Notes: generated from the letters alone by a model not told the origin. 64,000 nt of DNA from Treponema sp. (GCA_017470085.1 JAFUFE010000114.1:1721-65720); one strand, 5' to 3'. Positions 9,749-24,872 are shown, numbered from the stretch's first letter. Numbers and translations: made by a program.

Positions 9749-10936
9749 CTATTCAATAATTTTAGTAACCTGACCCGAGGCAATCGTACGACCACCTTCA
9801 CGGATAGCAAGTTTCAAGCCTTCATCCATAGCAATCGGGTGAATGAGCGTTCCGATAATCTTGGTGTTGTCGCCCGGCTTCACCATGTCGGTTCCCGCCG
9901 CCAACTCAATGGTTCCTGTAATGTCGGTTGTGCGGAAATAAAACTGCGGACGATATCCCGTAAAGAACGGACTATGACGACCGCCTTCCTCTTTTGACAG
10001 CACGTAAATTTGCGCCTCGAATTTGGTGTGCGGATGGATTGAGCCCGGTTTGGCAAGCACCTGTCCACGTTCCACCTCTTTCTTTTCAATGCCGCGGAGC
10101 AAAATACCGACGTTGTCTCCTGCGATACCTTTATCGAGCAATTTATTGAACATTTCGATGCCCGTCACCGTAGAATTCTGCGTGGGGCGAATGCCGACGA
10201 TTTCTACCGGATCGTTCATATTGACGACGCCGCGCTCGATACGACCAGTAACAACGGTGCCGCGGCCGGAAATCGTAAAGATGTCTTCAATCGGCATCAA
10301 GAATGGCTTATCTTCATCGCGCACTGGATCATCGAACCACGTGTCCATGGCGGTCAGCAGTTCTTCAATGCACTGCGTGTTCGCCGGATCGCTGTCTTCG
10401 TTGAGCGCTTTAAACGCGGAGCCTTTGATAATAGGCGTATCTTCGGAGAAGCCGTATTCCTTCAGTGTGTCTTTGACTTCTTCCACGACCAGTTCCAACA
10501 GATCAGGGTCGTCAACCTGATCAACTTTATTCAGGAATACGATAATTTTCGGAACACCGACCTGACGGGCAAGCAACAGGTGTTCGCGAGTCTGCGGCAT
10601 AACCGAGTCCGGAGCAGAAACAACCAGCACGGAGCCGTCCATCTGCGCCGCACCGGTAATCATGTTTTTGATGTAGTCGGCATGACCGGGACAGTCGATG
10701 TGCGCATAGTGGCGCTTGTCGGACTGATACTCAAGATGCCGCGTGTTAATGGTAATACCGCGTTCTTTTTCTTCAGGCGCGTTATCGATTTCATCGTACT
10801 TGAGCGCCTTGTCACCGTATTTTTTGGCACAATATTGGGTGATGGCAGCAGACAAAGTAGTTTTACCATGGTCAACGTGACCGATGGTTCCAACGTTCAT
10901 GTGGGGTTTCGTTCTTTCGAACTTTTCCTTAGCCAT
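9749..10936 (-). CDS. tuf: Elongation factor Tu
   Basis: ATG at 10936 gives [27 protein letters not shown], with DCPGH and NKVD motifs. The ORF track extends 12 codons further upstream. Confidence 0.97.
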
Positions 10937-11550
10937 GATGCTCTCCTTGCCGGCTTCCTCACGCGCCGGCATTCTTTTTATATGTGATGCACTTTAAGCC
11001 AGAATACGTCATTCCCTAAAAGACAACGCCGCATTCGCATACACACTCAAAACTGACAGTACGCGCAGGTTTGATGACACGAGATGAATTACGGACAAGA
11101 ACGATACATTCCTTACCGACGCTTTATCAATTCAAAGCGTCGCCGGCCAGTACCACCGATCATCATCAAACGCTGCGTTTGACAACTGGTTTGGCATGCA
11201 AAGCCATTCGCTCAAAAATCGAGCCGGCAGATACCCGCGGTGCCATACCAGTCATACATCCGTTGCCGACGGCAACAGATAGCACCACGAAGCTGTATAA
11301 TCTGAATGCCAACATCGGCAAACTTTACGGTTATACCAGAGGAAATATCCTCTGCCTGCCTTTATACAGGGAACGTGCACACCAGATGCACGCCAATTAC
11401 ACGCGTTGGGAAAAATCACTTTTTCTCCACCGGTGTAAACACTTTTTCGCCCGCTCTATAAAGAAGCGTGACGTTCTTTATACACTTTTTAAGAAATAAA
11501 TGCAAGAGCCCCGGCATAAAAAATGTAAAAAAATAGCGCACATTTTCCGG

Positions 11551-12525: not shown

Positions 12526-14655
12526 ATGCCCACGCTCCCCAAGAACGCTCTGTCACAGAAACGGACAAATTCAATAACACGAAAATTGTTGCTACCGGTC
12601 ATTATTTTGGTACTGACGTTGTATGTGGTGCTGTTTTTCAATAATTGGTGGAGCATAAACAGTTTTTCAAAAAAGCAGGTGCAGTCGCTTGCAGACCTCA
12701 AACACATGATAGTTGTGAACACAATCAACAATTACACCGCAACGAGCACTATGCTCTTGGATTTCGTCCTGAACAACGAAGACATTGTACAGGCGTTCGC
12801 CGCGCAGGACAGGCAGGCATTGCTGGCGGCATCTTCCCCGCTTTGGAATATGATGCACCAAAAATACAATATTTCGCAATTTCATTTTCATACGCCCGAT
12901 TCGTTTTCGTACCTGCGCGTACAAAAGCCTGCCCAATATGGAGACGATTTGAGTTCGTTCCGTGCGACCGTTGTAGCGGCGAACAGGCAGCGTAAACGCA
13001 TCACAGGGCTTGAAGTTGGCGTCAGCGATTTAGGGTTCCGTGTGGTAACACCGGTGACCACAGCGAACGGTATTCACGCAGGAACAGTAGAAGTAGGGAT
13101 CGGCATCGGTGATACATTTATCGCTGAAGTCGCTGCAACGGCGCCGGCAGAAGCGCTCGACGGCGGCTTGAACATCGCCATTGCGGTACGCACCCTTTCC
13201 GGTGAATATAAAACTATGGGCAGTAATTTTTCCCGCGAACAGAATAACGACCACGAAACAATCATGCAGCAGCTGGCCGGAAAAAGTTCCTTCATTCATA
13301 CGGACAAGGACACCGTGTCCGCATATTATCCGCTCATCGATTTTTCCGACAACACCATCGGATATATACAATTCGGCTTCTCTATTGCGGCAATCAGGAC
13401 GGAACAGCTGACTTTCTTTGCGCGATTGCTCATCATTTATATCCTGACGCTGTTTCTATTCGTGCTGGTCATCAGCATGGTTTCACACCGCGTGCTCACC
13501 CGTCCGATTACGCAGACGGTTGCCGCGCTCAAAGACATCGCGCAGGGCGAGGGCGATTTGACGGTGCGACTGCCGGTTACGGGCAACGATGAAATCACCG
13601 ACCTGTCGTCGTACTTCAATCTGACGATAGAAAAAATCGGCAATCTGATTAAAGCGGTTGCCGCGAATACGGAAAGCATGCAGTCTATCGGGCATGAACT
13701 CTCAAGCAATACGACACAGACGGCGAGTGCGATACACGAAATAAACGCCAACATAAACGGTGTAAAGCGGCAAGCCGTTACGCAAGCGGCGAGCGTGACC
13801 GAGACAGCCGCCACGGTTGAAGAAATCATCCGCACTATCAGGCAGTTGAACGGAAACATCGAATCGCAAGCAGCAAGCGTGGAAGAATCGCTCGCATCAG
13901 TGGAGCAGATGGCAGCCAACATAAATGCAGTAACGGCGATGCTGCGGAAAAACAGCCTGCTGATTAAGGAAGTGTACGAGCAAACAGCAAACGGTAAGAA
14001 TGGCGCACGGACAACGAACGAATCGGTGAGCGAGCTCGCGGAGAAATCGGATTCGCTGTTTGAGGCGAGCAAAGTGATTCAGAACATTGCGGAGCAGACG
14101 AATTTACTCGCGATGAATGCGGCAATCGAGGCGGCGCATGCGGGGGAAAGCGGTAAAGGCTTTGCTGTGGTCGCCGACGAAATCAGAAAGCTTGCGGAAG
14201 AATCGAACATGCAGGGCAAGCAGATAGGCGGTGTTATAAACGAATCGCTACAGGTGATACGGCATATAACAGAAGCGGGGAATGGAGCAGAACAGACGTT
14301 TATCCATGTGTACGACCTTATGAGCGAACTGTCCGCGCAGGAGGAGCGGATACTGAACGCAATGCAAGAGCAAGAACACGGCAGTACGGAGATGTTGCAA
14401 GCAATCAGGGAAATAAACACGGTGACGGTGCAGGTACGGGACGGTTCAGCACAGATGCTCGCGGGCGGCGAGAATGTTGCAGTGGAGATGCACCGGCTCG
14501 ATGAGCTAACGCGCGTCATTACCGACAGCATGAACGAAATGTCTGTGGGAGCAGTACAAATTGACAACTCGGTGCAGGACATAAATACAATCGCCGCAAA
14601 AAACAAAAAGAGCACCGATGATCTTGCCGCGGAGATGAAAAAGTTCAAGGTGTAA
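12526..14655 (+). CDS. Methyl-accepting chemotaxis protein (periplasmic Cache-like sensor, HAMP, MA signalling domain)
   Basis: 709 aa with two TM segments flanking a ~270-aa sensor. HAMP-like segment is [24 protein letters not shown]; the conserved hairpin is [41 protein letters not shown] is AGGAGG. Confidence 0.92.
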
Positions 14656-14848
14656 CGTGTGTGCGGTTTTACGCGAAACGTGCTATCGTTTTCTCACATT
14701 TTAAACACCGGAAAATGTTTCTTAATTTTGAATCGTGAACGATGTTTCAAAATCGAAAGCTGTTCCAAACCGCGCGGTCACTTGAAGCGACGCTGCAAAA
14801 CGCACTGAAATGAGAACGTGCAATGAACGCTCCCGATGCAGAGTGTTC

Positions 14849-14879
14849 GGTGTGGTGGTGGTGTGTGTGTGGGGGGGGG
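14849..14879. repeat. Composite microsatellite: GT/GGT-rich run followed by G9
   Basis: Reads ggtgtggtggtggtgtgtgtgt then nine G (14871-14879). A near-identical (GT)4-G8 lies at 62836-62851. Confidence 0.9.
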
Positions 14880-14944
14880 ATCGCTCGTTCTCATACGATA
14901 TCGCAGTCGAGCATATCCCCTTATCTCGCCGCACGCATCGGGAC

Positions 14945-15205
14945 ATACGCCAGCCGCGTGGGCGGCGAGTGAAATAATTTCTACTCATGCAAACAGAGCG
15001 AAGCGACGTATACGCCAGTCGCGCAAGCGACGAGTTAGATAACTTCCTTACAGTAAACGACACGAAGTGGCGTATGCACCAGCCGCGCGAGCGGCGAGTC
15101 AAATAACTTTCATTCATGCAAACAGAGCGAAGCGACGTATACACAAGTCGCTCTGCCTGTCGCTAGCCGGTCAGTCGCGCACGCGAAAATTCATATAACT
15201 TTCTT
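14945..15205. repeat. Tandem array of ~64-65-bp repeats (3 good units plus a degenerate fourth)
   Basis: Units start at 14945, 15010, 15074 and 15139. Units 1 and 3 are near-identical, including CATGCAAACAGAGCGAAGCGACGTATAC. A related inverted copy lies at 39001-39135. Confidence 0.85.
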
Positions 15206-15419
15206 CTCTTTCGTGTCAAAATCATCTGCTTGTACCACAGAGTATATAGAACCAATTTTGATTTTCCATACGATGATGCACGTGCAGGCGCTGTTTTTCA
15301 ACAACGCCGTTTCAACTACACGAACACGGCGCTCCCGTCAAATGGGGTGACACACCGAAAGCTCGTTTTCACCCCAAACTGACCGACAGCGGATGCAGCG
15401 CCTGCGTCCATGCAGCAAC

Positions 15420-16370
15420 TTATACAGACGGTATTTCCCAGTTGAAAAATTTCCAATATGGGGCACCGACACGCTGTTTAAAATCCGTCATATCCTTTTG
15501 GCTCCAGTCATACACACCTTTCCCCGTTTTGACGCCCAGATTACTTTCTTCTACCAGCCTACTGACCAATGCCGGAACACCGGTCTCATTTGAGAGCGTC
15601 GGAAAAATCGTCTTGCTCACATTGTAGTTCAAATCCAGACCGCCATTGTCCATGTGCTCAAACAGGCCGATATGAGAATAACGCGGACAAAAGCTGTACA
15701 GCAAACAGGTATCTACATCTTCCGGACGCGCGATGCCTTGCTCCACAATGTTAACCGCTTCACGCCACAGCGCAAACTGCAATCGATTACCGATAAAGCC
15801 TGGTGCGCTTTTTTTCATAATGACCGGCTTTCGATCCAAATCTTCAAGCAATGTTTTGGCAAACGTCTTGACCGACTCATCTGTAGCGCTTCCGCCTGCA
15901 ATTTCAAAATACGGTACCAGATGTGGCGGGAAAAATGGATGTGTTACCACCAGACGGTCTTTATACTTTGTCATCTTTTCTGCCATAACATCCACTTCTA
16001 ACGCAGAAGACACCGAACAGATTGCGCGAACATTTGGACACGATGCTTCTATTTTTTGGAGTACCTCATGCTTGACGTCTACCTTTTCGACGACCGCCTC
16101 AAATATGACATCGCACGCCGCAAGCGCACTGTACTCCAACGAATATGATAGCTGCTGTTTGCAATAAGCAATCTGTCCCTCGTTGATACATGCCTGATCT
16201 TTTAAATCGTCAAGATATTTATCGTATTGCTTTTCGCTTGTCTGACGGAGTTCCTCATTCACTGCAAGAACGACGGTATCAAATCCGTGGCTGGTCGTCA
16301 AAACAGCAACACTTGTTCCAATCATTCCGGTACCAATAATGCCGATTTTTTTTACATTTTCACGATTCAT
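15420..16370 (-). CDS. NAD-dependent 3-hydroxyacyl(-CoA) dehydrogenase family protein (L-carnitine-dehydrogenase-like)
   Basis: ATG at 16370 follows GAGGAGG. Rossmann motif is KKIGIIGTGMIGTSVA; the 3HCDH C-terminal domain carries PGFIGNRLQFALWREA. Confidence 0.85.
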   Translation of the reverse strand: MNRENVKKIGIIGTGMIGTSVAVLTTSHGFDTVVLAVNEELRQTSEKQYDKYLDDLKDQACINEGQIAYCKQQLSYSLEYSALAACDVIFEAVVEKVDVKHEVLQKIEASCPNVRAICSVSSALEVDVMAEKMTKYKDRLVVTHPFFPPHLVPYFEIAGGSATDESVKTFAKTLLEDLDRKPVIMKKSAPGFIGNRLQFALWREAVNIVEQGIARPEDVDTCLLYSFCPRYSHIGLFEHMDNGGLDLNYNVSKTIFPTLSNETGVPALVSRLVEESNLGVKTGKGVYDWSQKDMTDFKQRVGAPYWKFFNWEIPSV

Positions 16371-16432
16371 ACAAACCTCCTCAAAAATGCAGCAACGCAG
16401 GCGGAGCACATGGGGTGCCGCCGTGCACGGTA

Positions 16433-17725
16433 TCACATATATCCCATAATTTTAAACAGTAGCAGTAAGATAATCATTGAAACCAACGACATAACCGGCA
16501 CCGTTAAGAACATCAAGAAGTATGATTTTTTATGCGTGGAGCCAGCAGCGGTAATCGCTGAATTGACGACGCTGTTATTGGGCAACGTGAAAATCATTGT
16601 TGACAACGCAATACCTCTGGTCAGCGCCTCAACGTTGGCACCCATCGGCACAAAGTATTCGTTAATGATTGGCAACGCCATACCTTCGCCGCCAGTTCCA
16701 GAGCCGCAGACACCCGCCAAAACCGCGACAATTACCACGGAAATAATAACGGGATTGCCGTTCATTCCAACAACTGCCTGTATCATGTTTTGAAACGCTT
16801 CGGTTGACTGCACAACGCCGCCAAATCCTACCGCAGAACAAGTGGCAACGAGCGCCGTCGTTCCGCCAACCACACCCATTTGGAGTTTCTGCCACATGCC
16901 GTCTTTCCAGGGCAAATACTTCGCGTAGAAAATGAGGGCTGCCACAATGCCGATTGTCATACCGACTGCAGCGTGTGCTTTTATAAAACCTAACGCGCAG
17001 ATTAAAATCGCCATTGGAATAATAGCAAGCAAAAAGCTGGGAGCGTTTTTGCGCTCTGCCGATTTTTCAGGTGCACCTGCCACATGGGGTTCATCCCAGC
17101 CGAGTCCCTTTTTCTTCGTATAATTCACGTACCACGAGCAAAGCACAATCTCAAGTATGATCTGTATACCGCCTGCGATAAATCCCGGGACGGCTGCTGC
17201 AAAGGTTGTCGTACCGAGCGCTTGAGCCGGAACCAGCAGCTGTATCGCTGGAGAGCCGGGCATCCACACCGTAAAGGAGCCTGCCGCCGCAACATAGATA
17301 CCGGGCGCTAACGTTGAAGATATATTCGCTTTTTTGAACAAAGAAAACATGAGCGGATACAACGTAAACATACCGATAAAGACGGAGATGCCTCCATAGC
17401 CCATAATGCCGCCTGCCAAAATAATCGCCGGCACGATTGCCTTTTCGCCGAGTTTGTCCACCACAAAATTAGCGATAGAATCCGCGGCTCCTGACAATTC
17501 AAGAATTTTTCCAAAAATTGCACCGAGCAAAAAAACTAAAAAATTACTCTGCACAAATCCGGCGAATGCTCCGGCAAAAGTTCCCGTTATGCCGCCCACC
17601 ACATCCATGTGTGCTGTTAGAAGAACAAAAACACTGGTGATGATTGCGCCAAAAAAAATCGGCACACCGCGGATACACAGAATCGTAATCAATATGATTG
17701 CTAAAATAAGAAATACTGTCTGCAT
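16433..17725 (-). CDS. GntP-family (gluconate/hydroxy-acid:H+) permease
   Basis: 430-aa polytopic protein with GntP-like N-terminus and G-rich TM segments; lies between the BKACE and dehydrogenase genes. Confidence 0.8.
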   Translation of the reverse strand: MQTVFLILAIILITILCIRGVPIFFGAIITSVFVLLTAHMDVVGGITGTFAGAFAGFVQSNFLVFLLGAIFGKILELSGAADSIANFVVDKLGEKAIVPAIILAGGIMGYGGISVFIGMFTLYPLMFSLFKKANISSTLAPGIYVAAAGSFTVWMPGSPAIQLLVPAQALGTTTFAAAVPGFIAGGIQIILEIVLCSWYVNYTKKKGLGWDEPHVAGAPEKSAERKNAPSFLLAIIPMAILICALGFIKAHAAVGMTIGIVAALIFYAKYLPWKDGMWQKLQMGVVGGTTALVATCSAVGFGGVVQSTEAFQNMIQAVVGMNGNPVIISVVIVAVLAGVCGSGTGGEGMALPIINEYFVPMGANVEALTRGIALSTMIFTLPNNSVVNSAITAAGSTHKKSYFLMFLTVPVMSLVSMIILLLLFKIMGYM

Positions 17726-17743
17726 GTATCTCCTCCGTACCGA

Positions 17744-18625
17744 TTATGCACTGTGCGGTATGTGCAAAATGTCACGCGCTTCATCAGGCGTTGCAACTTC
17801 CAACCCGAGCTCGTGGATAATCCGCACCGCACGCTCAACCATCTCGGCGTTGCTCTTCAAAAGCCGTCCCGGCGCATAGTAAATATTGTCTTCCATACCG
17901 ACGCGCGCGCCGCCACCTTTGAGGATCGTCATCGCCATACCCGGCACGTGATTTTTTGCACCGATGGAAATCGTAGAGAAATTCACAAATCGATCCCGCG
18001 GCAACTTTTTAATCATAAAGTCAAGATTCTCTTCAGAAAATGAAATGGCGCCCTGGCTGATTTTATCCATGCCCATAACAAATGAAAGCGAAACCGGATC
18101 AGAGAGACAGCCGGCCGGCTCCAGAACGTTGAATACATCTTCCACCGATGTCGGATCAAAACATTCAAGCTCCGGCTTAATGCCCATGTCTTTCATCATC
18201 TGCGCATATTTAATGAGGAACGGACGGTACCATTCATACACAAACGTGCGGTCTGCCCAGCTTGTCCCGATGAGCGAACAGTCAAGCGAACACATCTCTG
18301 GCTTCACCAAATCTTTATAGTACAGCAGCTGCATGCCGTCTTCCGCCGTCGTTCCGGCTTTATTTGCCGGCGCCGTTGAATACTGCAAGATGACGTTGCA
18401 TTTAGCCCGAATCCGCGAACCGATATCGCTGTATACGACGGGGTCATTCGTTGACTTCCCCGCTGTGTCACGTGCGTGAATGTGCACAATTGCCGCGCCT
18501 GCGTTATAGCAGTCATACGCCGATTGCGCAATCTCCTCCGGCTGCAGCGGAATATTCGGGTTCGCCTCTTTGCCGTGGAACGCGCCAGTCTGTGCCACCG
18601 TAATGATTACTTTCCTTGTCGCCAT
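17744..18625 (-). CDS. Beta-keto acid cleavage enzyme (BKACE / DUF849, 3-keto-5-aminohexanoate cleavage enzyme family)
   Basis: 293 aa. VIITVAQTGAFHGKEANPNIPLQPEEIAQSAYDCYNAGAAIVHIHARD is the typical BKACE N-terminus with metal-binding HxH. RBS is GGAGGT. Confidence 0.85.
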   Translation of the reverse strand: MATRKVIITVAQTGAFHGKEANPNIPLQPEEIAQSAYDCYNAGAAIVHIHARDTAGKSTNDPVVYSDIGSRIRAKCNVILQYSTAPANKAGTTAEDGMQLLYYKDLVKPEMCSLDCSLIGTSWADRTFVYEWYRPFLIKYAQMMKDMGIKPELECFDPTSVEDVFNVLEPAGCLSDPVSLSFVMGMDKISQGAISFSEENLDFMIKKLPRDRFVNFSTISIGAKNHVPGMAMTILKGGGARVGMEDNIYYAPGRLLKSNAEMVERAVRIIHELGLEVATPDEARDILHIPHSA

Positions 18626-18683: not shown

Positions 18684-18699
18684 AGCAAATTACATGCCA
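18684..18699 (-). promoter_or_regulatory. Sigma-54 (-24/-12) promoter of the BKACE operon
   Basis: Minus strand reads TGGCAT-GTAAT-TTGCT with exact GG-N10-GC spacing. The -12 element lies 58 nt upstream of the BKACE ATG. Confidence 0.8.
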
Positions 18700-18941: not shown

Positions 18942-20384
18942 ATGAGCGAGCCCCAAACAACCGTATTTCAAGACTCTACTTTGATGCGTTCTATTCTGGA
19001 CACGTCATTTGACGGCATTACCTATACCGACCGCACCGGTGTCATCATTTACAATAATCCGGCCTATTATAAAATCACCGGGCTGAACGAATCCGAACTG
19101 CTCGGAGAAAGTATCTTTTCCCTGGCAAGGAAAGGCTATCCCATATCGCGTATGGCACAGAAGGTTTTTCAGTCTCAAGAAACGTTGTCTCGAACAATCC
19201 GTTATCGCCCGGATTCCAATACGGAAGTTCTCGTTACCGTTGTACCGCGGTTTGATGATACTGGCACATTTAGCGGCATTATCGCCAACGTGCGCGACAT
19301 CACCATGTTGAACAGTCTCCGTAATCAAATGGACACCATCCATGCCACATATTCTGCAAAACTCCAGCGGCGCAAAGATGAAATAAAGCAGTTGAAAGAA
19401 CAAATTGCCCGCATACAGTTTAATCTTGACGATTACAATTTGGTCGGAAGAAGCCCAGAGATGCAGCAGCTGGTCGAGCTGGCACAGCGGATTGCACAGG
19501 TAGACAGCACCGTGCTTATTTTAGGCGAATCCGGCGTCGGCAAAGATGTATTTTGCAAGATGATAGGAAAATTTGCCGGCAAAGAAAACTACACAAAAAT
19601 TTCCTGTGGCGCGATCCCCGAAAGCCTATTGGAATCAGAGCTATTCGGCTATGAGGCGGGCTCCTTTACCGGAGCAAGCAAAACCGGTAAACCGGGCATA
19701 TTTTCTATAGCAGGGGACGGCATTGTGTTTTTAGACGAAATCGGAGAGTTGCCGCTTGCCATGCAGGTCAAATTGCTTACGGTGCTGCAGGATCGCCAGT
19801 TTTTTGCCATCGGTGGGAAAAAGCCGCTTCCCATGCGCGCACGCATTATTTCTGCAACGCACCGCGACTTAAAAACATTGGTTGCAGACGGCACATTCAG
19901 AGAAGATTTATACTACCGGTTGAACGTAATTCCGGTGCACATTCCTCCGCTCCGGGAACGCAAAGAAGATATTATGCCGATTGCCTGCCATCTGCTGGAA
20001 CGACTGAAGAAAAAATACAACCAGCAAAAAATAATCAGCAACGACTTAGCGAGTCTCCTCACTGCATACAACTGGCCGGGAAATATCCGCGAACTGCATA
20101 ATATATTGGAACGGATGTTCGTACTGTCTCCCCACATGACGCTGACGGCGCGGGACTTCCCCTGTGAATTGAACATCACAGGAGCAACAACCGGGCATGT
20201 CCCAGAAGCCCACAACTGTACGCTCAAAGAAATAACCGCGGCAACTGAAAAAGAGGCCATTACCGCCCGAATCCACCAAACAACAAATCTGCACGATGCG
20301 GCACAGAGTCTCGGTATCAACCTGTCTACGCTCGTCCGCAAGATGCAAAATATCATCTTTCTGCACGAGAACTCAAAAAAATAA
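18942..20384 (+). CDS. Sigma-54-dependent transcriptional activator (PAS sensor, AAA+ domain, Fis-type HTH)
   Basis: 480 aa. N-terminal PAS (ILDTSFDGITYTDRTGVIIYNNPAY), Walker A GESGVGKD, sigma-54 contact loop ESELFGYEAGSFTGA, C-terminal HTH LHDAAQSLGINLSTLVRKM. No receiver domain. Confidence 0.92.
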   Translation: MSEPQTTVFQDSTLMRSILDTSFDGITYTDRTGVIIYNNPAYYKITGLNESELLGESIFSLARKGYPISRMAQKVFQSQETLSRTIRYRPDSNTEVLVTVVPRFDDTGTFSGIIANVRDITMLNSLRNQMDTIHATYSAKLQRRKDEIKQLKEQIARIQFNLDDYNLVGRSPEMQQLVELAQRIAQVDSTVLILGESGVGKDVFCKMIGKFAGKENYTKISCGAIPESLLESELFGYEAGSFTGASKTGKPGIFSIAGDGIVFLDEIGELPLAMQVKLLTVLQDRQFFAIGGKKPLPMRARIISATHRDLKTLVADGTFREDLYYRLNVIPVHIPPLRERKEDIMPIACHLLERLKKKYNQQKIISNDLASLLTAYNWPGNIRELHNILERMFVLSPHMTLTARDFPCELNITGATTGHVPEAHNCTLKEITAATEKEAITARIHQTTNLHDAAQSLGINLSTLVRKMQNIIFLHENSKK

Positions 20385-20388
20385 ACGG

Positions 20389-22062
20389 CTACAGCGCACT
20401 ACAGAACGGGCGTTGGCGCTTTCTTCTGCACGATACATCGCCGTATATAATGAATCGTGCGCCGTTAAATACGGTATGCTGCACTTGGCCGTATGCTTTT
20501 GAACGGGAAAATTCCCCTCTACAAAAATCTGCCAACAGCATCGAACTGCCGTACGCAACAAGGTGCAGGCTGTCCTCTCCGCAGTGAACAGCCAACAGCA
20601 CGGCACATGCCAGATTATAGCCGATAAGTCCAATAATCACGGGAGAGACAATGCACATAATCAAACCGTACAGATACACCTTTTTGCTGTTACTGTATTC
20701 ATCGCCGTGCAACATTGCGATGCACCCGAATGACGACGGTAACAGGTATGCTGCCGCGCCGGCCATCGATGTACACAGGGCGATTGCCGCCGGATTGATA
20801 CGTCCACCGCTTGCAAGCCCGATGCTCACTCCCACCGTCGTCATCACCGTTATCGTTAACACATTCGACGCAAAGTTGGTCAAAAAAACGCTCACCATTG
20901 TAATAATCAGAACGACTACCAGCGGAGAAACGCGGTCAAGTACCGGTGTAATTTTTTCTGTAATAAAAACTGGGATGCCCGTTGCATCATTCGCCATAGC
21001 AGAACCAAGAAATACGCCGATAGAAATAAAAATCAGGATCCCCCAGTTTACATGGTGATTGACAATATCCTTTAAATCGATGATCGGTTTTTCATTTGTG
21101 CTTATAATCGACATCACCACGACTGCACAAATCGCCCAAAACGTAATGCCGTAACTGTTGATTGTGCCGACCCAGGGAGCATCGGTAAACATTCCCGCCA
21201 CGCCCGGCAGCATCCACATAATAACTGTTCCAAAGAACACAATAACCGTAATGAGTTCTTTTACCTGCATCGGCCCGCGATGTGCAAGCACTTTCTGTAC
21301 ATCAAAATCTTTGAACCGGCTCATGTCGGGATGCGCGGCAAAGCGCATAATAAGTGTCAGCGCCACAAACAGCACCAATCCTGTCGGCACGCCGACCACT
21401 AGATACGTAAACAGGCTAATCGGTACCCCCGTCGCTCCTTCATAAATCGCCATTCCAAGAATCGCAAGCGAATGAGAAATCGGTGTCATTAAACCGCCGA
21501 TGATAACTCCGTATACCACCATGATATTCGCAACATGCGGATACGCATCTTGCTCTGTATACCCCAGCTCCTGATACACCCGCCGCGAAAACATAAGCAT
21601 AAACGCAGTTGCAGGAATCTGGTCAATAAAGCTTGCGAGAATCAAACCGATGACTGCCATTGCCACGGTAAATGTCCACGGGCTTTTTGATACAAGCCGC
21701 ATGCTCATAAACCGGGCAACCAGTCGGTCGGTAAACCCTGACTCGTTGAGCGCATGCGTCATCACAAAGCTCATCAAAACAAAAAAGACAATCCAGCTGC
21801 CCATCGTCCCGCCGATGGCACCATTTAACGACGTTACACCGGTCCGGGACAGCAACACAATCGCAAGCACTGCCGGCCATACCGTGTCAACCAGTGAAAG
21901 CAATAGAATTGTCCCTATAAAGACACCCAACACCCGCATGCCAATAACGGTCATCGGCGGCGCTGGCGGAATAAACCAAAACGCCAGTATGACGGCAAAA
22001 CATATCACCGTTGTGATAATCGTCGGTTTTTTAAATTGGATTCGCTCTTTGCTGCTTTCCAT
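20389..22062 (-). CDS. DASS/SLC13-like (ArsB/NhaD superfamily) anion:cation symporter
   Basis: 557-aa polytopic protein with an FASNV hairpin-type motif. The last ~65 aa are non-hydrophobic and may be a read-through tail. Confidence 0.75.
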   Translation of the reverse strand: MESSKERIQFKKPTIITTVICFAVILAFWFIPPAPPMTVIGMRVLGVFIGTILLLSLVDTVWPAVLAIVLLSRTGVTSLNGAIGGTMGSWIVFFVLMSFVMTHALNESGFTDRLVARFMSMRLVSKSPWTFTVAMAVIGLILASFIDQIPATAFMLMFSRRVYQELGYTEQDAYPHVANIMVVYGVIIGGLMTPISHSLAILGMAIYEGATGVPISLFTYLVVGVPTGLVLFVALTLIMRFAAHPDMSRFKDFDVQKVLAHRGPMQVKELITVIVFFGTVIMWMLPGVAGMFTDAPWVGTINSYGITFWAICAVVVMSIISTNEKPIIDLKDIVNHHVNWGILIFISIGVFLGSAMANDATGIPVFITEKITPVLDRVSPLVVVLIITMVSVFLTNFASNVLTITVMTTVGVSIGLASGGRINPAAIALCTSMAGAAAYLLPSSFGCIAMLHGDEYSNSKKVYLYGLIMCIVSPVIIGLIGYNLACAVLLAVHCGEDSLHLVAYGSSMLLADFCRGEFSRSKAYGQVQHTVFNGARFIIYGDVSCRRKRQRPFCSAL

Positions 22063-22090: not shown

Positions 22091-22106
22091 TGCAAGAAAC
22101 GTGCCA
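22091..22106 (-). promoter_or_regulatory. Sigma-54 (-24/-12) promoter of the DASS permease gene
   Basis: Minus strand reads TGGCACG-TTTC-TTGCA, a full consensus. It lies 28 nt upstream of the ATG at 22062, with AAGGGGG as RBS. Confidence 0.82.
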
Positions 22107-22556: not shown

Positions 22557-22572
22557 TGGCACACAATTTGCT
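22557..22572 (+). promoter_or_regulatory. Sigma-54 (-24/-12) promoter of the CoA-transferase gene
   Basis: Plus strand reads TGGCAC-ACAAT-TTGCT; 121 nt upstream of the ATG at 22694. Confidence 0.8.
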
Positions 22573-24401: not shown

Positions 24402-24872
24402 TTACCACCGGTAATGCGCAAACGCCTTGTTCGCTTCGGCCATCTTGTGGGTATCTTCCTTTTTCTTGAACGCCGTCCCCGTGCTGTTGTACGCATCGAG
24501 CAGTTCGGATGCAAGCGTATCCGCCATGCCGTGGCCGTTCCGGTTTCGGGCAGCGGTGATGAGCCAGCGCATTGCAAGCGCTTCGCGGCGCGCATCTCGG
24601 ATCTCTATCGGCACCTGATACGTCGCTCCGCCAACACGGCGCGCCTTTACCTCAACCACCGGCTTAACGTTATCGATCGCCTTTAAGAAAACTTCAAGCG
24701 GATCTTTGTCAGTCTTGGCTTTTAATTTATCCATCGCCTGATAGACAATTTTTTTACAGACATCTTTTTTACCGGCAAGCATCATCCGCGTGACGAATTT
24801 CGACACTACCTTGCTGTTGTATTTTGCGTCGGGCACTACCGGCCGATCAATGGATTTTTTATGTCGTCCCAT
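24402..24872 (-). CDS. rpsG: 30S ribosomal protein S7
   Basis: 156-aa ORF with [14 protein letters not shown] and a C-terminal HYRW. Confidence 0.96.

Follow-up and report, generated by a model that had tools for sequence, protein, structure and literature searches.

A sigma-54-linked BKACE gene module of apparent clostridial origin in a Treponema genome, probably for the catabolism of a small 3-hydroxy or 3-keto acid

Beta-keto acid cleavage enzymes (BKACE) let bacteria split free beta-keto acids with coenzyme A (CoA) borrowed from acetyl-CoA, and few of their physiological substrates are known. A gene for such an enzyme heads a three-gene operon (positions 15,420 to 18,625) in a 64,000-nucleotide stretch of DNA from Treponema sp. 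(GCA_017470085.1 JAFUFE010000114.1:1721-65720), the whole of which is here called the window. The three open reading frames run in one direction on the minus strand in the order BKACE, permease and dehydrogenase, as the initial annotation of the locus had described them. Around them stand genes for a sigma-54 enhancer-binding protein, a DASS-family anion transporter and a CoA-transferase (Table 1); the last two had also been named as neighbours, and profile matches show both to be real genes. The module sits between rpsG (24402-24872) and tuf (9749-10972).

Table 1. Genes and control sites of the module, in window coordinates
Feature	Position	Strand	Basis
BKACE gene, clade A, 293 amino acids	17744-18625	minus	PF05853 profile match
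Putative distant GntP-family permease gene, 430 amino acids	16433-17725	minus	PF02447, 43.7 bits
3HCDH-family dehydrogenase gene, 316 amino acids; free 3-hydroxy acid predicted as substrate	15420-16370	minus	3HCDH_N and 3HCDH matches
PAS-AAA+-HTH sigma-54 enhancer-binding protein gene, divergent from the operon	18942-20384	plus	Sigma54_activat, PAS and HTH_8 matches
DASS-family anion transporter gene with its own sigma-54 promoter	20389-22062	minus	Na_sulph_symp, CitMHS and TIGR00785 matches
Fused alpha/beta family-I CoA-transferase gene, YdiF/Pct/FadX type, 520 amino acids	22694-24256	plus	YdiF 2ahu match
Highly structured 3' region behind the dehydrogenase gene, which may be a terminator or may stabilise the 3' end	15270-15419	minus	RNA fold
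Sigma-54 (-24/-12) promoter TGGCATGTAATTTGCT; the ATG of the BKACE gene lies 58 nt downstream	18684-18699	minus	Exact consensus match
Sigma-54 promoter, 28 nt upstream of the DASS ATG	22091-22106	minus	Exact consensus match
Sigma-54 promoter TGGCACACAATTTGCT, upstream of the CoA-transferase gene	22557-22572	plus	Exact consensus match

For the dehydrogenase the family first assigned stands, but the start codon (GTG at 16436, giving 338 residues over 15420-16436) does not: homology begins at residue 23 of that reading frame and a GAGGAGG ribosome-binding site lies 6 nt upstream of an ATG at 16370, so the gene is taken to begin there. The intergenic gaps measure 18 nt between BKACE and permease and 62 nt between permease and dehydrogenase. 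Each of the three genes has its own Shine-Dalgarno sequence, no terminator-like site was found between them, and we infer that they share one transcript. The region that follows the dehydrogenase folds into nested helices without a clear U tract (-69.9 kcal/mol, z = -4.9 against 200 shuffles). The best start of the CoA-transferase gene has GGAGG 9 nt upstream.

Control by sigma-54 is indicated by an exact scan of the 64-kb window for TGGCAYN5TTGCW, which gave three matches where 0.28 were expected; none of 100 shuffles gave three. Each site stands upstream of one unit of the module, and the gene for the activator, whose product matches Sigma54_activat at 202 bits, is placed among them. With -24/-12 promoters, an adjoining enhancer-binding protein gene and rpoN elsewhere in the genome, the locus has the features of a candidate sigma-54 regulon. 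Relatives in which the activator is present have this motif ahead of their BKACE, DASS and CoA-transferase genes, and one of them (L136) has it ahead of the permease-dehydrogenase unit as well; versions of the cluster with a LysR-type regulator or from Brachyspira have no match to it. A paper on the sigma-54 regulons of Clostridiales mentions none of these genes.

The 293-residue protein is a catalytically complete BKACE by profile, alignment and fold, which upholds the family first proposed for it. It matches the Pfam model PF05853 (DUF849) at 266.7 bits (cut-off 24.8) over profile positions 1-273 of 274, and residues H48, H50, E152, E154, R241, E245 and D246 are invariant in an alignment of 39 homologues. 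H48, H50, E245, E154, R241 and D246 align to His46, His48, Glu230, Glu143, Arg226 and Asp231 of Kce, the enzyme of lysine fermentation, in which His46, His48 and Glu230 are the zinc ligands and Glu143, Arg226 and Asp231 are catalytic. An AlphaFold (AF2) model built on the homologue alignment (pLDDT 92.7) has the TIM-barrel fold, with Foldseek TM scores of 0.84-0.89 against Kce (2y7d), 3lot and BKACE15 (8rio); in BKACE15 the role of the catalytic glutamate is documented (PMC11961710). The window enzyme most likely forms acetoacetate by reacting a beta-keto acid with acetyl-CoA.

The placement of the enzyme among its relatives comes from our own quick maximum-likelihood tree and from the NCBIfam equivalog models, all of whose cut-offs it fails to reach. 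In the tree it lies inside clade A (17 rows, support 99), defined by at least 74% identity to the window BKACE; clade A, clade B (54-66% identity) and the enzyme of locus L039 form one group (support 99) apart from Kce and from TAL of the Clostridium scatologenes phloroglucinol route. Named functions were set aside on scores, on the Glu14 position and on neighbouring genes, the carnitine type among them. For Kce the score is 235.5 bits against a cut-off of 382 (NF052387), Phe16 stands at the Glu14 position, and profile searches found no kam, kdd or kal lysine-pathway genes in the window; Glu14 binds the substrate amino group in Kce, and its equivalent in TAL is Trp16 (PMC10470551). For TAL the score is 163.9 against 430 (NF053538, dioxohexanoate enzyme), residue 16 is Phe and not Trp, the clade is another one, and the genome has no cyclase-family (DPGC) gene; identity to a cyclase-flanked TAL-type paralogue of Flavonifractor sp. 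is 38.6%. For 3-oxoadipate:acetyl-CoA acetyltransferase the score is 169 against 350 (NF053568), a missed cut-off that does not exclude a 3-oxoadipate substrate in another lineage. The window BKACE is neither Kce, TAL nor carnitine-type and falls in a distinct clade whose members are gut and anaerobic Bacillota. True Kce genes, and one cyclase-flanked gene of TAL type, stand as separate paralogues in genomes of Flavonifractor and Intestinimonas in which a clade-A enzyme occurs too; they are only 35-39% identical to the window BKACE. The repertoire of Flavonifractor plautii ATCC 29863 (G004) is unusually large, with nine BKACE paralogues, two of them above the Kce equivalog cut-off and several adjoining 3HCDH-type dehydrogenase genes.

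The dehydrogenase matches 3HCDH_N (125.8 bits) and 3HCDH (70.7 bits). The catalytic Ser117, His138 and Asn188 of Clostridium butyricum Hbd (4kug) are kept as Ser122, His144 and Asn195; the CoA-contacting Lys56 and Asn221 are replaced by Cys61 and Cys228, and both contacts are missing in 40 of 41 orthologues. It was by the loss of these two equivalents that CsTfD was recognised as a free-acid dehydrogenase (PMC10470551). The best solved relative is also a free-acid enzyme (4om8), and a canonical Hbd-type gene lies elsewhere in the genome. The protein thus has the marks of the free-acid branch of the 3HCDH family (TfD, LcdH and lambda-crystallin type), and since the catalytic triad is kept and both CoA contacts are lost, it should act on a free 3-hydroxy acid and not on a CoA ester. 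This residue signature agrees with the earlier description of it as a hydroxy-acid enzyme. An identity as L-carnitine dehydrogenase was rejected (NF005471, 99.4 bits against 414; NF005716, 121.3 against 592).

The permease exceeds the gathering score of PF02447 (GntP_permease, 22.5) and reaches 32.8 bits of the 292.75 demanded by the gluconate-permease model TIGR00791; by profile it is probably a distant member of the GntP/ion-transporter family. It is 70% identical to a permease of Aminipila butyrica whose gene is placed between the CoA-transferase and dehydrogenase genes of a BKACE operon. The CoA-transferase aligns with Escherichia coli YdiF (2ahu) over residues 3-519 at 395.9 bits, with both CoA_trans halves, and scores 408 bits against NF052271 (FadX), below its cut-off of 750; its orthologues are 58-68% identical beside clade-A BKACE genes and 45-55% beside clade-B genes. 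Both this gene and the DASS gene had been suggested as parts of the module, a suggestion strengthened by their being conserved partners of this BKACE clade and by the exact sigma-54 promoters on all three units. Two thiolases and one Hbd-like gene are encoded in the genome.

The conservation of the cluster was followed through 80 species-representative loci and additional metagenome contigs, cited here by their L numbers where needed. Clade A is carried by Flavonifractor, Intestinimonas, other Oscillospiraceae, Lachnospiraceae and Brachyspira. Its 16 loci have the DASS gene in 13 cases, directly preceding BKACE, the CoA-transferase in at least 10 and the dehydrogenase in one; homologous activators flank the module in 10. 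Clade B is found in Sporobacter, Papillibacter, metagenome-assembled genomes of Actinomycetota and Oscillospiraceae of termites and the rumen, and has the order LysR, BKACE, dehydrogenase, a 153-residue protein, CoA-transferase. Among clade-B loci that extend 3 kb or more to each side, BKACE and dehydrogenase are adjacent in 24 of 25 and the CoA-transferase is present in 20 of 25; none of 45 clade-B genes has DASS beside it. The 153-residue protein is conserved (L029:11927-12388 and 23 other clade-B loci) and has no Pfam match; its nearest Atlas clusters are unnamed, a few with Cupin_2 at low share.

Aminipila butyrica has a further arrangement, in which a PAS-type activator gene follows buk and ptb in one direction and BKACE, CoA-transferase A and B, permease and dehydrogenase follow each other in the other; identity to the window is 70% for the permease, 69% for the dehydrogenase and only 62% for BKACE. 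All six genes of the window are found again in L136 (BKACE 86%, CoA-transferase 68%, permease 61%, dehydrogenase 60% identical), and L039 has five of the six with the CoA-transferase missing. L016 combines BKACE, dehydrogenase, CoA-transferase and activator; its permease is no more than a distant one, at 3.5 kb. A thiolase and ptb/buk lie in the cluster at L018 and L131. L137 (4855-11252) has a LysR gene, then CoA-transferase A and B, thiolase, DASS, permease (64%) and dehydrogenase (58%), without BKACE, and reads as the permease-dehydrogenase feeder pair joined to a CoA-transferase/thiolase route of classical type. The NCBIfam models do not sort the split CoA-transferases and the thiolases of the relatives into PcaIJF-like and AtoDAB-like enzymes. 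In Brachyspira (L013, L015), whose BKACE is 82-83% identical to that of the window, the order is DUF6198, DASS, split CoA-transferase, BKACE and MarR, with no sigma-54 activator; in L013 a 170-residue fragment of a GntP permease lies before the BKACE gene. This distribution makes BKACE, DASS and CoA-transferase the conserved core of clade A, with permease and dehydrogenase as an accessory feeder branch of Aminipila type. The window unites the partner sets of clades A and B, and a few loci from clostridia do likewise.

The host, described at first as an anaerobic spirochaete, is a Treponema by its EF-Tu, which is 92-94% identical to proteins of that genus. The window BKACE is 86-90% identical to proteins of Oscillospiraceae, the best 120 matches listed in a database search are all at least 83% identical, and the clade is common in gut and rumen metagenomes. 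BKACE is absent from the 10 genomes of the same genus that were searched, and 120 genomes of the family hold a single one, at 35% identity. On these comparisons the whole gene set is judged foreign to Treponema and horizontally acquired from clostridia by this gut member of the genus. The Brachyspira copies form a separate branch of the quick tree, so spirochaetes would have gained the gene at least twice.

Together these genes probably form a catabolic module, gained by horizontal transfer and controlled by sigma-54, whose substrate is a small 3-hydroxy or 3-keto carboxylic acid. The initial annotation had already joined dehydrogenase, BKACE, CoA-transferase and permeases into one catabolic module, and residues, synteny and promoters lend support to that view. 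In the scheme proposed, the 3-hydroxy acid would enter through the GntP-like permease, and the dehydrogenase would turn the free acid into the beta-keto acid with NAD(P)+ as oxidant. Clade-A clusters without the dehydrogenase imply that the DASS transporter may itself bring in the keto form; alternatively it may swap keto acid for the acid product. The zinc enzyme BKACE would convert beta-keto acid and acetyl-CoA to acetoacetate and an acyl-CoA, and the YdiF-type transferase would turn acetoacetate into acetoacetyl-CoA, probably at the cost of that acyl-CoA. The thiolases and Hbd of the genome could then lead to acetyl-CoA or butyrate and ATP. The PAS activator would sense the substrate or an intermediate and fire the three promoters.

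Such a module adds an uncharacterised branch to a design already known, that of dehydrogenase, BKACE and CoA-transferase; it is no new type of system. In the C. scatologenes route TfD oxidises a free (S)-3-hydroxy acid and TAL cleaves the keto acid with acetyl-CoA to acetoacetate and an acyl-CoA (PMC10470551). Common to both are a 3HCDH-family dehydrogenase without the CoA-binding Lys and Asn, then a BKACE, with CoA-transferase and thiolase next, and an aromatic residue in place of Kce Glu14; the phloroglucinol reductase and cyclase genes are not in the window, whereas DASS and GntP carriers and sigma-54 control mark its module. Kce has the same fold, zinc site and catalytic residues as the window BKACE, but in place of Glu14, the residue by which Kce holds the 5-amino group, the window enzyme has Phe, and there are no kamA, kamDE, kdd or kal neighbours. 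L-carnitine dehydrogenase is paired with the dehydrocarnitine cleavage enzyme, a BKACE of group G5 (Bastard et al. 2014, summarised in 10.1101/2023.02.15.528638); this system likewise has a 3HCDH-type free-acid dehydrogenase followed by a BKACE, but the carriers of the window are anion carriers and not betaine/carnitine carriers. In the oxidative 2-deoxy-D-ribonate pathway of Pseudomonas simiae a hydroxy acid is imported, oxidised at C3 and cleaved by BKACE into acetoacetate and glyceryl-CoA, and the Klebsiella variant also involves a CoA-transferase of Pct type (10.1101/205583). There, however, the dehydrogenase is an SDR enzyme, the carriers are MFS proteins and glycerate kinase is essential; no glycerate kinase gene stands beside the module in any locus examined. 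The 3-hydroxybutyrate/acetoacetate systems Pseudomonas putida PP_3073-3075 and E. coli AtoC-atoDAEB resemble the window in placing genes for hydroxy-acid permease, dehydrogenase and acetoacetate CoA-transferase under an enhancer-binding protein and a sigma-54 promoter, but they lack BKACE and have an SDR dehydrogenase and another type of activator sensor.

Several findings weigh against the catabolic scheme as drawn. The dehydrogenase is confined to a single one of the 16 clade-A loci, and in five clade-A genomes no orthologue was found anywhere (best match 35% identity); L137 shows that its product can be managed without BKACE. The operon is a mosaic, with BKACE nearest to clade A and permease and dehydrogenase nearest to Aminipila- and L039-type clusters, so the coupling of its genes in this genome is read from adjacency and a handful of similar loci. 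The hints to the substrate also diverge, the usual DASS cargo being di- and tricarboxylates while the ptb/buk neighbours suggest simple acyl-CoAs. The same mosaic would suit an adjacency left by recent horizontal assembly with no functional coupling, in which BKACE works with DASS and CoA-transferase, and permease and dehydrogenase serve an unrelated hydroxy acid; differing nearest relatives, the rarity of the dehydrogenase in clade A and the separate sigma-54 promoter of the L136 permease-dehydrogenase pair all fit. We nevertheless think this improbable, given the one shared promoter and short gaps in the window, the near-universal BKACE-dehydrogenase adjacency in clade B and its recurrence in Aminipila, and the fact that the L136 pair still lies in the same activator-linked cluster.

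A ketone-body route has a somewhat better claim, though it is itself unlikely: permease and dehydrogenase would import and oxidise 3-hydroxybutyrate, DASS would import acetoacetate, CoA-transferase and thiolase would finish the conversion, and BKACE would be dispensable or would only extend the range to longer homologues, for example 3-oxopentanoate or 3-oxohexanoate. L137 is a complete ato-like route without BKACE, the split CoA-transferases of relatives score best against AtoD-type models, and the P. putida genes for a sigma-54 regulator, a permease for D-beta-hydroxybutyrate and a 3-hydroxybutyrate dehydrogenase adjoin one another and are required for growth via 3-hydroxybutyrate (10.1101/2020.07.04.188060). 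Acetoacetate and acetyl-CoA on BKACE would, however, be a null reaction, the BKACE gene is promoter-proximal, the most conserved of the set and directly behind DASS in clade A, and for CsTfD, the one relative of this dehydrogenase type that has been characterised, the activity on acetoacetate is 0.02%. DASS carriers, moreover, are not known for monocarboxylates. That the dehydrogenase is an ordinary 3-hydroxyacyl-CoA enzyme, and the operon part of butyrate metabolism or beta-oxidation on CoA esters, is very hard to credit: its top NCBIfam matches are named 3-hydroxybutyryl-CoA dehydrogenase, all far below their cut-offs, but the lost Lys56 and Asn221 equivalents, the free-acid structural relative and the canonical Hbd gene speak otherwise, and the known substrates of BKACE are free beta-keto acids (PMC11961710; PMC10470551). 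Just as remote is operation in the condensing direction, from acyl-CoA and acetoacetate to a longer beta-keto acid that is reduced and exported as electron sink or product. BKACE reactions are reversible in vitro, yet it is catabolic loci that typically have substrate-sensing activators, carriers of importer type and neighbours such as ptb/buk and thiolase, and no biosynthetic partner genes were found.

Returning to the catabolic module, the view that its substrate is not readable from the sequence holds: the hints conflict and three candidate classes remain. Placed first, if tentatively, is a 3-oxo- or 3-hydroxy-dicarboxylate such as 3-oxoadipate. An extra negative charge is favoured because DASS is exclusive to clade A and because of the basic residues R126, K224 and H226. 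Clade A differs from clade B at Y82 (N), R126 (L), K207 (L), K224 (gap) and H226 (Q), and in the model these positions sit at the catalytic face of the barrel; they offer a weak hint of a more anionic substrate, in agreement with the DASS link. The hint is further weakened by a possible hairpin pairing of R126 with E131 and by an Arg that Kce has close to the position of K224. With 3-oxoadipate, succinyl-CoA would be formed and, after CoA transfer, exportable succinate. A 'ketone-body-like' 3-oxo- or 3-hydroxyalkanoate of C5 or longer comes next as a possible but uncertain choice, short 3-oxoalkanoates being favoured by the lack of BKACE in the L137 operon, by ptb/buk as neighbours and by the 3-hydroxybutyrate precedent of P. 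putida. An acid resembling triacetate or 3-hydroxy-5-oxohexanoate is indicated by the LpdBCD-type gallate decarboxylase genes adjoining Sporobacter clade B and by the aromatic residue 16, and seems rather doubtful; a deoxy-sugar acid is more doubtful still. Some other compound has a small chance, better than either of these two.

Naming the clade-A substrate would assign a function to many plainly wrong 'Kce-like' annotations and could reveal a nutrient niche common to distant gut anaerobes. Butyrate producers in culture have the clade, and spirochaetes have received it on at least two occasions; cultured carriers are Aminipila butyrica, Flavonifractor plautii ATCC 29863, Intestinimonas aquisgranensis, Brachyspira catarrhinii and Sporobacter termitidis. 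A bolder idea, which we regard as a long shot, is that the clade-A module, to which the window adds a permease and a free-acid dehydrogenase, is an undescribed and widespread route. Through it, anaerobes that live with a host (Flavonifractor, Intestinimonas, Lachnospiraceae, Brachyspira and this Treponema) would scavenge a beta-keto or beta-hydroxy acid of host or dietary origin and need no ATP to activate it. Candidates would then be 3-oxoadipate or 3-hydroxyadipate, or C5 ketone bodies, with the released acid perhaps exchanged via DASS. If true, it would be a new link from host ketone and dicarboxylate metabolism to butyrate and acetate formation in the gut.

Some further observations concern the relatives and the flank of the operon. 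In an uncultured Sporobacter (L130:526-16728; also L035, L028 and L038) the clade-B set lies directly downstream of LpdD/UbiX/UbiD genes of gallate-decarboxylase type; upstream are also a xanthine-dehydrogenase-type Mo/2Fe-2S enzyme, a Zn-ADH and LysR, a glycyl-radical enzyme follows the set, and the L130 locus has no cyclase (DPGC) gene. Loci of this type may represent an alternative lower pathway for trihydroxybenzenes. A second activator-linked set (L134:1409-7326 and L136:1-2561) consists of a fused CoA-transferase, a 457-residue GntP permease, an enoyl-CoA hydratase and a MaoC dehydratase, and adjoins paralogues or orthologues of the permease; in L136 an acyl-CoA dehydrogenase and a YczE/DUF6198 membrane protein are added, and DUF6198 also flanks the Brachyspira BKACE cluster. 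In the window, the rpsG-tuf insert that holds the module also contains a dCache_3-HAMP-MCP chemoreceptor gene (12526-14655, plus strand). The interval between this gene and the operon has a 140-residue open reading frame (14722-15144) without a family match in profile searches, tandem repeats of about 65 bp (14780-15205) and, on the minus strand, a C9 run followed by (AC)n (14849-14879).

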